NCBI RefSeq assembly: GCF_024298765.1
Contig: NZ_CP101210.1
Strand: one strand, 5' to 3'
From: Escherichia coli
GTDB lineage: Bacteria; Pseudomonadota; Gammaproteobacteria; Enterobacterales; Enterobacteriaceae
Length of the DNA: 64,000 bases
Part shown: positions 25,085-53,346 of the stretch, one piece after another
Numbering within the stretch: the first letter of the stretch is position 1
Layout: every line of letters begins with the position of its first letter
The notes under the pieces: model-generated
What the model saw: only the letters and a program-made list of their open reading frames with translations
The model's database searches: none
Told to the model about the DNA's origin: nothing
Position numbers and translations under genes: made by a program

Positions 25085-25120
25085 AATAAAAAAGCCCCCG
25101 GAAGGTGATCTTCCGGGGGC
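25085..25120 (-). terminator. his attenuator terminator hairpin
   Basis: gcccccggaag...cttccgggggc stem followed (minus strand) by U-run, between hisL and hisG. Confidence 0.85.
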
Positions 25121-25184
25121 TTTCTCATGCGTTCATGTACCACTGGAAGATCTGAATGTCTTCCAGCACACATCGCCTGAAAGA

Positions 25185-25235
25185 CTAGTCAGGATGATGG
25201 TGATGATGGTGGTGTTTAAATTGAACGCGTGTCAT
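25185..25235 (-). CDS. hisL: his operon leader peptide
   Basis: minus-strand reading atgacacgcgttcaatttaaacaccaccatcatcaccatcatcctgactag = MTRVQFKHHHHHHHPD* (seven consecutive His codons). Confidence 0.95.
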   Translation of the reverse strand: MTRVQFKHHHHHHHPD

Positions 25236-27902: not shown

Positions 27903-28168
27903 AGAAAAATTATTATGACAAGCCTCTCATTCTCTTGTCATTTCCCCCCCATTTAGGCACAATGCGCCGCTGTCAAAAAATGACTAAAAACCGACGTTTC
28001 ATCAGCGTCGGTTATTTTTTGCTTCAAACCAATCATTCATACCAAGAGGCCGGGCTTCGTACCGGATAGATATTTACTAAAAATCGACAGTTGTTGTCGC
28101 TGAGGAATCCAAAAAAATGGGGCAATTTTTTGCTTACGCGACGGTTATCACCGTAAAGGAGAATGACC

Positions 28169-48520: not shown

Positions 48521-49984
48521 CTGCTTTTCTCACATTTGCAGATTTTAAAAAAGCAAACAAAAACCTCCGTACATGATGTACAGAACAATCTACCAGGTAG
48601 TGGCGTCAGAAAACCTCCGGGCCGCCTGCACTTTCCGGAATGCGCCGGTTATGAAAAACCGGAAATTCAGTCTCTGTTGTAAGATGTACCCTCTGATACT
48701 ACGTTTTCTCTGTGTATTTAACTCACTGTATTTATTGTCTTTTTAAGCTTGACTGATATTCTCCGGTCATAGTGTGCCGGATATACATCCCGTAAACTTC
48801 TCATTTTTATATAAAAATACTTGCACTCTCTTCAGCGCATCTGTCTCCTTTAAGTAAAAAATGTTTTCACGTATTGCTGTAAATTCATTTTAAATCAGTA
48901 TATTACCTTGATATTGCTGTCTCCTGGTTTGATGCGTAATCGTTCTGCCTTTCTGGATGATTCTGGTGCTTCCGGGTGCATTCTCCTCTGCACATGCAAC
49001 AGTTCGTCATCGCCACGCTCCCAAAAAGCATATAAAAACGAATCGAATTTGATATTTTTTTCAATCGTTTTTCATAGGAATTTCGTAGGGTATTCTCCGC
49101 TATAACCTCCATATTTGCTGTCTTTTTCTTCATAAATCGTATGCAATATAGCCTGTCTGTCAAGACCTCTTCTCTGCTGTTGAGGAGACGATCTCATTTT
49201 TGGTCTTTTCCGGGAGAGAGGCTGTCAGATGAGCGAGCCGGATATACTGTCAGAGGTACACCCCGTAGCAGACCTGTGCTCCCATTTCCGCGATCCGGAA
49301 CCAACAACACCCTACGGTTAATACCATTTGAAGCGTCAGGTACTGCAGGAAGTTCCCCCCTGCGCGGACATCGGTTCCTGCCGACATCTCACAATACGGC
49401 CAGACTGTCATGCAGTAACACCCGCATGCGGTCTGCGGTTTTAAGCGCACTCTCCCGTTTTCAGTGCACCGATAATGCGTCATAGTAAGTCTGGGGGAAG
49501 TTACGGAATGCCTGTTAAGTGGTGCCGTGGGTGGAGACAGCTTACTTTTCTACAGCAACTGCAGTCATTCAGGATGATCAGGAGATATTCTGTCAATGTC
49601 ACGATCCTGCCATTTTCGTACCCGCTAAGATACTTCCGTTACTGATGCTGTCCGCTTTTCACCATTTCATCCTCACTGACAGGCGTTGCGTTTTGGGTCA
49701 TCACCACAGCTTTACGTTTCTCTTTTAACCGGTAACGCTCTCCTTTGATATTCAGCGTGGTTGAGTGATGCAGCAGTCAATCCAGGAGCGCTGTTGTCCG
49801 GCAACCACCATATCAACTTCTTCCCGGGTGTGGCGGAGAGGTGGTATCCTGGCTGAGTTTCGAAGCGAACCGTTCTTTTTGACGGGCGCATTTTACGTCC
49901 GGGCTGAATGTAGTAACGCGGCATGGAACGTCGGCCCGTATACCATTGCCTTAATCTCCGCAAAGATAACCTCGTCATTCCGGA

Positions 49985-49992
49985 CATTCTCT
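49985..49992. repeat. 8-bp target-site duplication (left) of IS66-family insertion
   Basis: cattctct identical to 52430-52437. Confidence 0.85.
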
Positions 49993-50075
49993 GTAAGCGT
50001 CGTCTGAGTACCGTCTGGTCCCGAATCCAGGATCCTGTAACTTAAGCACCCACTTATTTTGCAGGTGGACACCTC

Positions 50076-50459
50076 ATGCGCGCTAAAGAAAGACTTCCCC
50101 GGAAACACTATTCCCCTGAATTCAAAATGGAACTGGTCAGGCTGGCTCTTGAAGAAGAAGGCAGTATTGCCGCACTGGCCCGGAAACATGACGTCAATGA
50201 TAACCTGCTCTTTAAATGGATAAGGCTCTGGCAGCGTGAAGGGCGGGTCTGTCGGCCCCGAAAAAACTCATCGTCGCTTCCTGCCCTGATACCCGTGCAG
50301 CTTCAGGCGGGCTCTTCTCTCCCAACCTTCGAACTACCATCCTGCTCTCCTCCCGCTACCTGCCACATAAAATGTCGGGGAGGAGAAATAACACTGACTC
50401 ATCCCTCTGCTGAACTCATGAGCACTGTCCTGCGCGAACTGATGCGGGGGCCTGTATGA
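50076..50459 (+). CDS. IS66 family accessory protein (orf1/TnpA)
   Basis: 127 aa; HTH-like N-terminus; first ORF of IS66 element. Confidence 0.8.
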   Translation: MRAKERLPRKHYSPEFKMELVRLALEEEGSIAALARKHDVNDNLLFKWIRLWQREGRVCRPRKNSSSLPALIPVQLQAGSSLPTFELPSCSPPATCHIKCRGGEITLTHPSAELMSTVLRELMRGPV

Positions 50460-50803
50460 TAAATCTTCCCGCAGGCACAAAAATCTGGCTGGTTGCCGGT
50501 ATCACCGATATGCGCAACGGCTTCAATGGCCTCGCCGCAAAGGTGCAGACCGCGCTGAAAGATGACCCGATGTCCGGCCACGTCTTCATCTTCCGGGGAC
50601 GCAGCGGCAGTCAGGTAAAACTGCTCTGGTCCACCGGCGATGGTCTGTGCCTGCTGACAAAGCGACTGGAACGTGGTCGCTTCGCCTGGCCCTCAGCCCG
50701 CGATGGCAAAGTGTTCCTGACGCCGGCGCAACTGGCGATGCTGATGGAAGGTATCGACTGGCGACAGCCAAAGCGGTTACTGACATCCCTGACCATGTTG
50801 TAG
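50456..50803 (+). CDS. IS66 family accessory protein (orf2/TnpB)
   Basis: 115 aa; overlapping start with orf1 stop; typical IS66 organisation. Confidence 0.8.
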   Translation: MINLPAGTKIWLVAGITDMRNGFNGLAAKVQTALKDDPMSGHVFIFRGRSGSQVKLLWSTGDGLCLLTKRLERGRFAWPSARDGKVFLTPAQLAMLMEGIDWRQPKRLLTSLTML

Positions 50804-50852
50804 CGCTCTTTATCCTGGTTGTCGCAGAATAAGCCTGGTAAAATACAGGCTT

Positions 50853-52388
50853 ATGAACGACACCTCTTCTGACGACATCCTTCTGCTGAAACAGCGCCTG
50901 GCCGAACAGGAAGCGTTGATCCACGCCCTGCAGGAAAAGCTGAGCAACCGGGAACGCGAAATAGACCATCTGCAGGCGCAACTGGATAAGCTGCGCCGGA
51001 TGAACTTCGGCAGTCGTTCCGAAAAGGTATCCCGCCGTATCGCGCAAATGGAAGCTGACCTGAACCTGCTGCAGCAGGAAAGCGATACGCTGACCGGCCG
51101 GGTGGATGACCCGGCAGTGCAGCGCCCGCTGCGTCAGACCCGCACCCGCAAACCGTTCCCTGAGTCACTCCCACGGGATGAGAAGCGGCTGCTGCCGACT
51201 GAGCCGTGTTGCCCGGAGTGCGGTGGTTCGCTGAGTTACCTGGGTGAGGATGCCGCCGAACAGCTGGAGCTGATGCGCAGCGCCTTCCGGGTTATCCGGA
51301 CAGTCCGTGAAAAGCATGCCTGCCGTCGGTGCGATCGCATCGTTCAGGCCCCGGCTCCTTCGCGCCCCATCGAACGGGGGATCGCCGGACCGGGGCTGCT
51401 GGCCCGAGTGCTGACCTCAAAGTATGCAGAGCACACACCGCTGTATCGCCAGTCGGAGATCTATGCCCGCCAGGGTGTAGTGTTGAGTCGTTCTGTACTG
51501 TCGGGCTGGGTGGATGCGTGTTGTCGTCTGCTGGCACCGCTGGATGAAGCCCTTCAGCACTATGTCCTGACCGACGGCAAACTCCATGCTGACGATACGC
51601 CTGTCCCGGTGCTGTTGCCAGGCAATAAGAAGACGAAGACCGGGCGCTTATGGACGTACGTTCGAGACGACCGCAACGCCGGATCAGCGCTGGCCCCCGC
51701 AGTGTGGTTCGCTTACAGCCCGGACAGAAAAGGTATCCACCCTCAGACCCATCTTGCAGGCTTCAGTGGCGTACTGCAGGCTGATGCCTACGCCGGGTTC
51801 AACGAGCTCTACCGCGACGGCCATATAAAGGAAGCCGCGTGCTGGGCCCATGCCCGCCGAAAAATCCACGATGTTCACGTCCGTACCCCGTCAGCCCTGA
51901 CGGAGGAGGCGCTGAAACGGATCGGCGAGCTGTATGCCATCGAGTCGGAGCTCAGAGGTAAAAGAGCAGAGGAACGGCAGGCAGTCCGGCACCAAAAAGT
52001 GCTGCCGCTGCTGGCGTCACTGGAGGGGTGGCTGCGGGAGAAACAGAAAACCCTCTCAAGGCACTCAGAACTGGCGAAGGCGTTCGGGTATGCGCTGAAC
52101 CAGTGGCCGGCGCTGACCCGCTATGCAGAAGATGGCTGGGTGGAGGTGGATAATAACATTGCCGAAAACGCCCTACGACTGGTCAGTCTGGGGAGAAAAA
52201 ACTGGCTGTTCTTCGGCTCGGATCATGGTGGTGAGCGCGGTGCGTCACTGTACAGTCTTATCGGGACGTGCAAATTAAACGGCGTGGATCCGGAACGCTA
52301 TCTGCATCATGTACTTGATGTCATCGCCGACTGGCCTGTGAACCGGGTGGGTGCTCTGCTCCCGTGGCGGGTTACTCTGCCCGCCTGA
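50853..52388 (+). CDS. IS66 family transposase (orf3/TnpC)
   Basis: 511 aa; N-terminal leucine zipper, CPECGG...CRRCD zinc motif, DDE region. Confidence 0.9.
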   Translation: MNDTSSDDILLLKQRLAEQEALIHALQEKLSNREREIDHLQAQLDKLRRMNFGSRSEKVSRRIAQMEADLNLLQQESDTLTGRVDDPAVQRPLRQTRTRKPFPESLPRDEKRLLPTEPCCPECGGSLSYLGEDAAEQLELMRSAFRVIRTVREKHACRRCDRIVQAPAPSRPIERGIAGPGLLARVLTSKYAEHTPLYRQSEIYARQGVVLSRSVLSGWVDACCRLLAPLDEALQHYVLTDGKLHADDTPVPVLLPGNKKTKTGRLWTYVRDDRNAGSALAPAVWFAYSPDRKGIHPQTHLAGFSGVLQADAYAGFNELYRDGHIKEAACWAHARRKIHDVHVRTPSALTEEALKRIGELYAIESELRGKRAEERQAVRHQKVLPLLASLEGWLREKQKTLSRHSELAKAFGYALNQWPALTRYAEDGWVEVDNNIAENALRLVSLGRKNWLFFGSDHGGERGASLYSLIGTCKLNGVDPERYLHHVLDVIADWPVNRVGALLPWRVTLPA

Positions 52389-52429
52389 CCAGCTTCACTT
52401 CGTCAATACGGTTCTCACTGCACGCTTAC

Positions 52430-52437
52430 CATTCTCT
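52430..52437. repeat. 8-bp target-site duplication (right) of IS66-family insertion
   Basis: cattctct. Confidence 0.85.
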
Positions 52438-53346
52438 GCCAGGCATATGTCGATGTAATCCATAAACGATTTCAGCTTACCCCTTTTGTGGCCAGTCTTT
52501 CTGGCTGGCGGTTCAGGGGATGTTTTCTGGTTATCGTGTACCACAAAGCAGGGATATTGCCCCGATAGTCACATTTCAGATTGATCGCGGTCTGAAGATG
52601 TGGCACTGAGGTAACGTGCTGGTGTCACTGGTATTGCTGAAGTTATGGTTTTTCGGGGTCAGGTGAGCCTGTTGTGTGTATGCTTTTTGTTCAGGTCAGA
52701 GGGGGACTGTGTGGACAGCGGCTTTTGTCTCCGGGCATTCACGCCTGAACGATGAATGCGATTTTCAGCAATATTTGTCTTTGTGACACTCTCTGGTTGA
52801 GAAGCTAATGCGCGCCCCTGTTTCCACAGAGAATGAGGCTTGCCATCAGCCGAAACATCAGTATTCCACGCCATACAGACGGCGCCTGACCATGTGCTGA
52901 TGCAGGTAAAATGTTTCACTACAACTGTTCGGGTTGCTATGCAACGAAACAGCGATTCTCACGATCTTTAACTGCAACGTTTTTCCGCCTGAAAGCTGAC
53001 TGCCTCCTGCTGAGGTGGGAGGCTATGATTCAGTGCGTTTATAGTCTCCGGGGTATGCATGTACCGGAGCATACCATTTCTGGTGGATAACAAGCCGGCA
53101 CATTCAGACTGCAGTGAAGATGGAGGCACCTGGTTGTGAAGAACGTTTCTGCCCGTGGCTGCTTCGCATCATCAATGGTATTCATACCCGCTCAGAAATG
53201 ACCGGGTGCTGAAGCCCTCCGTTATCGCGCAGTATAATGACGTATATGATCTGTGGACGAGTGAGCGGCGTGCCTGATGTACGCCGCTATTACTGTATTT
53301 TACCACAGGGCTGGTTTTCTGCTGCCAGCCCTGTGGTTCTCAGACA

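Follow-up and report, generated by a model that had tools for sequence, protein, structure and literature searches.

An IS66-family insertion sequence within an IS21 remnant of a CP4-44-type genomic island of Escherichia coli

A perfect 8-bp target-site duplication around an insertion sequence (IS) with intact genes raises the question of whether the element was acquired by the present strain or came with the DNA around it. The IS considered here lies within a 64-kb stretch of Escherichia coli DNA (the window), in a CP4-44-type genomic island that has tmaR/yeeX at its his-operon side and cobU at the other. A preliminary description of the locus had read it as a recent insertion. The ends of the element, its relatives, its target, and its distribution among E. 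coli genomes are considered here together.

The 2,437-bp element is immediately bordered by two copies of CATTCTCT, as read directly from the sequence (Table 1). The copies match exactly (8/8), for which the chance probability at two fixed positions is ~1.5e-5. The terminal inverted repeats are imperfect and start GTAAGCGT, with a left end of GTAAGCGT... and a right end of ...ACGCTTAC. A repeat search paired terminal arms of 22 nt with 77% complementarity, a manual count gave 19/26, and the first 8 nt are the same at both ends. Both the duplication and the GTAAGCG terminal repeats claimed in the preliminary description align when re-read, and the same termini are seen in eight other copies of the element.

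Table 1. Coordinates of the element, its genes, and the interrupted target in the window.
Feature	Coordinates	Strand	Evidence
IstB (IS21 helper ATPase) C-terminal remnant	49639..49797	-	Pfam IstB_IS21, profile positions 209-238 of 238, E=3.3e-6, minus-strand translation
istA pseudogene fragment, downstream (3') part	49793..49992	-	PGAP pseudogene calls in empty-site genomes; DNA homology
Left target-site duplication copy, CATTCTCT	49985..49992	.	Direct reading; same duplication in seven other genomes at the locus; single copy in empty-site genomes
Complete IS66-family IS, 2,437 bp	49993..52429	+	100% identical full-length copies elsewhere; same ends at seven separate insertion sites
Left terminal inverted repeat (IRL), GTAAGCGTCGTCTGAGTACCGT	49993..50014	+	Repeat search and manual count
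tnpA, 127 aa, helix-turn-helix accessory protein	50076..50459	+	Pfam HTH_Tnp_1 (PF01527), 50.3 bits, E=2.9e-13; NCBIfam NF047595
tnpB, 115 aa, IS66 Orf2-type accessory protein	50456..50803	+	Pfam PF05717, 131 bits, E=1.7e-38; NCBIfam NF033819, 119 bits
tnpC, 511 aa, DDE transposase	50853..52388	+	Pfam PF13007, PF13005, PF03050, PF13817; NCBIfam NF033517
Right terminal inverted repeat (IRR); reverse complement GTAAGCGTGCAGTGAGAACCGT	52408..52429	-	Repeat search and manual count
Right target-site duplication copy, CATTCTCT	52430..52437	.	Direct reading; also seen in orthologous loci
istA pseudogene fragment, upstream (5') part, cut off by the insertion	52438..52521	-	PGAP calls; colinear alignment

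Three uninterrupted ORFs and their Pfam and NCBIfam matches bear out the earlier assignment to the IS66 family with intact transposition genes. The stop codon of tnpA overlaps the start codon of tnpB in the sequence ATGA (50456-50459). TnpA scores 75.7 bits with NF047595, the NCBIfam model of IS66-like TnpA, which is barely above the cutoff of 74. TnpC contains leucine-zipper, zinc-finger, catalytic, and C-terminal IS66 domains, with PF03050 matched at 352.9 bits (E=1.8e-105), PF13005, PF13007, and PF13817 all exceeding their cutoffs, and NF033517 matched at 467.7 bits (cutoff, 180). The motifs HADDT (245), LQADAY (308), CWAHARR (330), and DNNIAEN (433) do not vary when the protein is aligned with TnpC of ISEc8 and ISEc23; we take the catalytic residues to be those assigned in the literature. 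The sequence features of the IS66 family are all present, namely the TnpC domains, TnpB, TnpA with its overlap, the GTAAGCG repeats, the 8-bp duplication, and the conserved DDE residues and CwAH-rR motif of the transposase. The three proteins are the same as RefSeq WP_001201739.1, WP_000609174.1, and WP_001000406.1, since records that annotate these match the element at 100% DNA identity. A search of the PDB gave no sequence match for TnpC or TnpB, and a consensus scan of 49700-52700 found no sigma-70-like promoter, a negative that says little in itself. The TnpB encoded here is of the IS66 Orf2 type and is distinct from the TnpB nuclease of IS200/IS605 elements.

By its sequence, the element is a full-length copy of a known IS66-family IS that is related to ISEc8 yet distinct from it. 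Hundreds of RefSeq genomes already contain the element and its proteins, and even the insertion at exactly this place. PGAP labels TnpC with the generic 'IS66 family transposase' and gives no element-specific name, and a literature search returned no name for any IS66 element of 2,437 bp. The nearest named relative is ISEc8 of E. coli O157:H7, which is annotated in the Stx2-converting phage 1717 (FJ188381). ISEc8 shares the tnpA-tnpB-tnpC layout, inverted repeats starting GTAAGCGT, and an 8-bp duplication (GGTTATCG in the phage copy), and is of similar length (2,442 bp). The amino acid identity is 96.5% for TnpB and 87.9% for TnpC; however, it is only 32% for TnpA, and the left ~500 bp, at ~43% nucleotide identity, are essentially unrelated. 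By the convention of ISfinder, isoforms share more than ~95% nucleotide or 98% amino acid identity. With 74.6% nucleotide identity overall and an unrelated tnpA module, the present element is therefore a different IS and not an isoform of ISEc8.

Other members of the family also differ. The TnpC of ISEc23, a neighbouring IS66-family element in O145:H28 strain RM13516, has the same domain order and catalytic motifs but is identical at only 315/537 aligned columns (~59%). In its general features the present element resembles the IS679 and IS66 prototypes, which have three genes, a tnpA/tnpB overlap, GTAA-type inverted repeats, an 8-bp duplication, and a DDE transposase with a CwAH-rR motif. IS679 is larger at ~2.7 kb. 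ISEc22 (2,454 bp) and ISCro1 (2,699 bp) are enterobacterial elements of the same family that differ in length from the 2,437-bp element. An 8-bp duplication has been reported for ISCro1.

Copies of the same sequence occur widely. Matches of at least 99% identity were found in 496 E. coli records and 334 plasmid records, covering Escherichia, Salmonella, Enterobacter, and Klebsiella, and full-length copies with 100% identity lie on many replicons of E. coli, Salmonella, Enterobacter, and Klebsiella. Eight further copies with 100% identity were read at seven distinct sites on E. coli plasmids and chromosomes, and several of them split genes, including traU and those for a DUF1173 protein and a protein with an Ig-like domain. 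All eight start GTAAGCGTCG and finish GCACGCTTAC, and each has its own different perfect 8-bp duplication (AGTTCTTC, TTCCATGC, GATGAAGA, GATAAAAC, CCCTGAGC, GTTAGGCC, and GGCTTGCC at the seven sites). Identical copies that each carry a perfect duplication of their own point to correctly placed element ends and, clearly, to recent transposition of this exact sequence elsewhere. The window copy has all its parts intact and the same sequence as those that jumped recently, and is presumably transposition-competent.

The target of the insertion is itself a decayed IS. The element entered an istA pseudogene of the IS21 family, itself frameshifted and truncated, beside the C-terminal remnant of IstB. 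In genomes with an empty site, this point falls within a feature that PGAP records as a pseudogene for an 'IS21 family transposase', both frameshifted and incomplete. PGAP labels the IstB remnant as an 'AAA family ATPase' pseudogene without its N-terminus. The left flank is ~91% identical to the istA of IS21 copies on plasmids, and the reconstructed empty site is colinear with IS21 DNA at 87% identity over 286 bp. As a Pfam search gave no match to the istA fragment and NCBIfam only E=0.022 for the frameshift-corrected peptide, the istA assignment is based on homology at the DNA level and on the pseudogenes called by PGAP. The remaining ~1.9 kb of the gap contains no annotated or detectable genes, a six-frame Pfam scan returning the IstB tail only; Rfam gave no RNA match there, and homologues in the plasmid collection carry no annotation. 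Of the ~2.4 kb first described as ORF-free and non-coding, this larger part stands as such, while the target consists of istA/IstB remnants.

Both states of the locus are common among complete E. coli genomes. Comparison with strains lacking the insertion had been proposed as a means of reconstructing the empty site, and the sequence ...GGACATTCTCTGCC... was indeed found in 282 complete genomes at up to 100% identity. The query consisted of the flanks joined by one CATTCTCT and matches were counted at ≥80% of 1,600 bp; ten of the 282 match at 100.0%. Strain SW4848 provides an example, with a single ...TCCGGACATTCTCTGCCAGGC... at this position. The occupied state is equally widespread: among 5,426 complete genomes, 294 have the identical left junction and 273 the right one, and 272 hold the element plus flank (≥80% of a 4,045-bp query). 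Strains of O104:H4, O145:H28, and O157:H16 are among them, lineage spread being judged by strain names and serotypes. Approximately half of the complete genomes with this island variant and full flanks carry the insertion.

This distribution bears directly on the claim of a recent insertion. The perfect duplication and the intact ORFs are what an essentially strain-specific event would leave, and some empty-site genomes match the window at 100% over the 1.6-kb flanks, which makes the event young compared with the sequence divergence of the island. However, the same junctions recur in 273-294 complete genomes of several serotypes, and CATTCTCT is duplicated in all seven of the orthologous loci that were read. 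The orthologous IS copies have also diverged, differing from the window copy at 2-24 positions. Two sampled copies, both annotated as tnpC pseudogenes, have a 4-bp deletion in common, and another carries a secondary IS100 within tnpA. A repeat of 8 bp is too short to serve as a clock, and its perfection, even alongside intact ORFs, is no evidence of recency in the strain at hand. On the sequence evidence the insertion is a polymorphism that was inherited or came with the island, and the present strain did not acquire it afresh; the earlier claim of recency is not supported, and a recent strain-specific origin is highly improbable.

A shared junction could also arise if CATTCTCT in the IS21 remnant were a hotspot that was entered repeatedly and independently. 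The IS copies at the locus vary among genomes more than their immediate flanks, as in O104:H4 with 8 differences in the 2,437-bp IS vs. 3 in ~3.4 kb of adjacent flank, and distinct donor alleles could produce such an excess. Against this, the position, orientation, and duplication are the same in all eight loci examined, the window included. No sequence resemblance to CATTCTCT is evident at the seven other places where the identical element has inserted, which speaks against strong target specificity. In one copy the SNPs are clustered at 50824-51059 and resemble a gene-conversion tract, which would explain the extra divergence of the IS without re-insertion. Recurrent insertion at this site is accordingly given very little weight.

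The reading that best accommodates these data is that a known IS66-family IS inserted once, in an ancestor, into the dead istA of a CP4-44-type island and was later inherited or recombined, and this is very probably what occurred. In this event TnpC, a DDE transposase aided by the helix-turn-helix protein TnpA and by TnpB, would have recognised terminal inverted repeats of the GTAAGCGT type. The element would then have been joined to staggered target cuts 8 bp apart, and gap repair would have yielded the CATTCTCT duplication. The biochemistry of the IS66 family is poorly characterised in general, which is no matter peculiar to the present locus. Following this single insertion in the ancestor of the island variant, the occupied allele would have been inherited or carried by recombination of the island. 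As the target was a dead istA fragment, the insertion was probably neutral.

The pristine state of the window copy raises a further point. Clock-like decay of one old insertion fits poorly unless gene conversion or a retained ancestral allele is allowed for, since the window copy matches the plasmid allele at 100% identity while most orthologous copies differ from it. One explanation is that an old shared insertion was overwritten in this strain from a co-resident identical copy, for example one on a plasmid. The allele in question is found on IncHI2-type and other plasmids, no complete genome exactly matches the 1,241-bp segment from tnpC to the right flank (most of the matches listed are at 99.7-99.8%), and one orthologous copy has the clear conversion-like tract described above. 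However, strain TB354 carries a near-identical allele here (2 mismatches over 5,960 bp), and no second copy of the IS is present in the 64-kb window. Polarisation of the SNPs with ISEc8 as outgroup gave a mixed result that does not separate an ancestral from a converted allele; ISEc8 has the window state at 3/5 informative sites, and the window copy may therefore retain the ancestral sequence. Overwriting of the window copy is, on balance, unlikely.

A broader form of this idea, in which inter-replicon gene conversion keeps the chromosomal copy identical to an epidemic plasmid allele, or in which the island locus is the source of the plasmid copies, is similarly doubtful. If either were true, a 'young' IS sequence would sit at an 'old' site of insertion, and ISEc8-like relatives would be able to exchange their tnpA modules. 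The practical weight of the locus beyond correct annotation is small. Nonetheless, the occupied/empty polymorphism, with ~280 genomes in each state, offers a clean marker for tracing variants of CP4-44-type islands.

The IS66-family element is a 2,437-bp segment directly abutted on both sides by CATTCTCT, as established by direct reading of positions 49800-52700 and by script. It starts with GTAAGCGTCG and ends with GCACGCTTAC. A repeat finder identifies its terminal arms as a 22-nt inverted repeat with 77% complementarity, and by script the first 8 nt of the two ends are identical, with 19 of the first 26 matching. Two positions fixed in advance would carry the same 8-mer by chance with a probability of ~1.5e-5. 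The first two of its three uninterrupted ORFs overlap in an ATGA. NCBIfam profiles identify ORF1 as an IS66-like TnpA (75.7 bits against a cutoff of 74), ORF2 as IS66_TnpB (119 bits) and ORF3 as transpos_IS66 (467.7 bits). The TnpC motifs HADDT, LQADAY, CWAHARR and DNNIAEN, which contain the DDE triad and the IS66-family CwAH-rR signature, are invariant in an alignment with the ISEc8 and ISEc23 transposases. At the sequence level, all testable defining features of the IS66 family are present. The repeats, ends and three ORFs of the preliminary description were confirmed as written by reading, script, repeat finder and ORF check, and its family assignment, duplication and intact genes are upheld by the repeats, ORFs and Pfam/NCBIfam profiles.

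Positions of the element, its target and surrounding features in the window
Feature	Position	Strand	Description
Histidine operon leader	25086-25209	-	Rfam, 131.7 bits
sRNA STnc240	27948-28022	+	Rfam, 68.2 bits
AT-rich patch	48600-49100		GC 0.37-0.39; upstream of the 387-aa gene
86-aa ORF	48903-49163	-	Inside the AT-rich patch
IS21-family remnant	49639-49992 + 52438-52521		IstB C-terminal tail joined to internal istA fragment; IS66 element nested inside
Alignment with plasmid istA pseudogene	49793-49992 + 52438-52521
CATTCTCT copies	49985-49992; 52430-52437
IS66-family element	49993-52429
Terminal inverted repeat	49993-50014; 52408-52429
Left end unrelated to ISEc8	49993-50500		~500 bp
ORF1 (tnpA)	50076-50459	+	127 aa; Pfam HTH_Tnp_1
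Equivalent of IS100 site in TB354	50181-50185		Within tnpA
ORF2 (tnpB)	50456-50803	+	115 aa; Pfam TnpB_IS66, 131 bits
SNP cluster in Z1323CEC0014	50824-51059		tnpB-tnpC junction
ORF3 (tnpC)	50853-52388	+	511 aa; Pfam LZ_Tnp_IS66, zf-IS66, DDE_Tnp_IS66 (352.9 bits), DDE_Tnp_IS66_C
Deletion in AR436 and 4/2-1	52379-52382		4 bp

The element is already known and is annotated in hundreds of public genomes. Among the named elements compared, the nearest is ISEc8, an annotated mobile element of Stx2 phage 1717, with 74.6% overall nucleotide identity. TnpB and TnpC are 96.5% and 87.9% identical, respectively, whereas TnpA shares only 32% amino acid identity and the left end is unrelated. The window element is thus an IS in its own right, distinguished by its tnpA module, rather than an ISEc8 isoform. 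As the unrelated TnpA and left end accompany a nearly identical TnpB, the comparison suggests that a tnpA/IRL module has been exchanged among enterobacterial IS66 elements. ISEc23 is more distant (TnpC ~59% identical), while ISEc22 (2,454 bp) and ISCro1 (2,699 bp) are set apart by length alone.

Megablast against 5,426 complete E. coli genomes found copies of at least 99% identity in 496 records, both chromosomal and plasmid, many of them 100% identical across all 2,437 bp. The plasmid collection added 334 records at at least 99%; among the matches listed, full-length copies at 100% occur in Salmonella, Enterobacter, Klebsiella, Shigella, E. albertii and E. coli. Eight 100%-identical copies retrieved for junction reading represent seven different sites. 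All eight have the same termini and each has its own perfect 8-bp duplication (AGTTCTTC, TTCCATGC, GATGAAGA, GATAAAAC, CCCTGAGC, GTTAGGCC and GGCTTGCC, with GTTAGGCC found in two copies at one site). Genes split by several of these copies include IncI1 traU, a DUF1173 gene and an Ig-like-domain gene. The boundaries of the element are thereby fixed independently of the window. From the junctions, an 8-bp duplication is characteristic of the element, and the insertion sites share no obvious consensus. They also show very recent transposition of this exact sequence somewhere, which bears out its earlier description as mobile. Being identical to recently transposed copies, the window copy is presumably transposition-competent. 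In strain S51 (NZ_CP015995.1), the copy duplicating CCCTGAGC is a second one and adjoins the gene for WP_001297900.1, a hypothetical protein also found a few kb from the insertion site in the same island type; this may reflect local hopping.

The element parts, the 8-bp duplication and both the empty and filled alleles were observed directly. By analogy with DDE transposons and with what has reportedly been learnt of IS679 and IS66, TnpC would bind the inverted repeats and join the 3' ends to phosphates in the target with an 8-bp stagger, after which gap repair would duplicate the 8 bp. TnpA and TnpB are reportedly needed for IS679 transposition and would likewise be accessory proteins here, with tnpA and tnpB probably translationally coupled via their overlap. 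A sequence search found no solved structure for TnpC or TnpB, and a scan detected no consensus promoter.

The empty site was queried as the two flanks joined with one CATTCTCT (1,600 bp). It exists exactly as predicted in the preliminary description: 282 complete genomes matched over at least 80% of the query, ten at 100.0% identity, and in SW4848 the sequence ...TCCGGACATTCTCTGCCAGGC... is present once. The filled site is just as frequent. A 300-bp left-junction probe was covered over at least 80% in 294 genomes, the right-junction probe in 273, and a 4,045-bp query of element plus flanks over at least 80% in 272. Carriers include O104:H4 2009EL-2071, O145:H28 RM13516 and O157:H16 Santai, serotypes which belong to different phylogroups, as well as isolates from poultry, pigs, a horse, seawater and humans. 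In the plasmid collection, a 1.04 Mb Klebsiella pneumoniae 'plasmid' (NZ_CP079635.1) carries the occupied-locus flanks at 99.8–99.9% identity, spaced as they would be with the IS between them; the record seems to be E. coli chromosomal DNA labelled as a Klebsiella plasmid.

The insertion had been called recent, which is wrong for this strain. Occupied alleles are common, CATTCTCT is the duplication at all seven orthologous loci read, and the orthologous IS copies have diverged. Relative to the window copy, O145:H28 RM13516 has 2 differences, O104:H4 2009EL-2071 has 8, AR436 has 10 and 4/2-1 has 8; the counts for the latter two include a 4-bp deletion common to both, and tnpC is annotated as a pseudogene in each. 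These comparisons indicate that the insertion is an inherited or island-borne polymorphism and rule out a new event in the source strain. The perfect duplication means only that 16 bases stayed unmutated. Some empty-site genomes match the window flanks at 100% identity across 1.6 kb, so the insertion is not ancient on the scale of island divergence.

IS copies at the locus are generally more divergent than their own flanks. In O104:H4, the 8 differences fall within the 2,437 bp of the IS, whereas ~3.4 kb of neighbouring flank has 3. Z1323CEC0014 (NZ_CP148426.1) has 24 differences, 16 of them SNPs within ~235 bp, a pattern resembling a gene-conversion tract derived from another IS66 relative. 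This contrast and this tract suggest that gene conversion with other IS66 relatives, and not elapsed time, accounts for part of the divergence. With ISEc8 as outgroup, the variable sites are of mixed polarity and favour neither an ancestral nor a converted window allele. TB354 (NZ_AP038814.1) is closest to the window at the locus, differing by 2 mismatches over 5,960 bp. In its IS66 copy, tnpA is interrupted by IS100, so that IS elements are nested three deep.

The setting had been described as non-coding, which holds only in part. In empty-site genomes a PGAP 'IS21 family transposase' pseudogene, frameshifted and without both termini, spans the insertion point and adjoins an 'AAA family ATPase' pseudogene without its N-terminus; in occupied genomes the transposase pseudogene is cut at the IS. 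The minus-strand translation matches the last 30 profile positions of IstB_IS21 (Pfam, E=3.3e-6), and the 150 bp adjoining the IS on its left side are ~91% identical to plasmid IS21 istA. The reconstructed empty site aligns uninterrupted (87% over 286 bp) with a plasmid-borne istA pseudogene; the plasmid also has enterohaemolysin ehx genes. On this evidence, the IS66 element is inserted in debris of an IS21-family element, and the hit was therefore probably neutral. The rest of the region, ~1.1 kb on the left side and ~0.8 kb on the right, gave no Pfam signal, Rfam match or annotation in homologous records, in keeping with the original description.

The matches to the histidine operon leader and STnc240 locate the window to the his-operon part of an E. 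coli chromosome. More broadly, the insertion site is part of a CP4-44-type island that lies between tmaR/yeeX and cobU and adjoins the his operon and what, from the gene layout, is apparently an O-antigen gene cluster. The island genes include cbtA/cbeA, yeeS/T/W, antirestriction, DUF932, patatin-like, RdcB-family and dynamin-family genes, a YeeP-like GTPase, an AlpA-like regulator and an inovirus Gp2-family gene. The YeeP-like GTPase gene is intact in the window and truncated by ISEc23 in O145:H28 RM13516 (~46.4-47.3 kb in window coordinates). The region matching the 86-aa ORF is annotated with a short hypothetical gene in only one genome among those looked at, and the surrounding AT-rich patch may be a promoter or silenced region.
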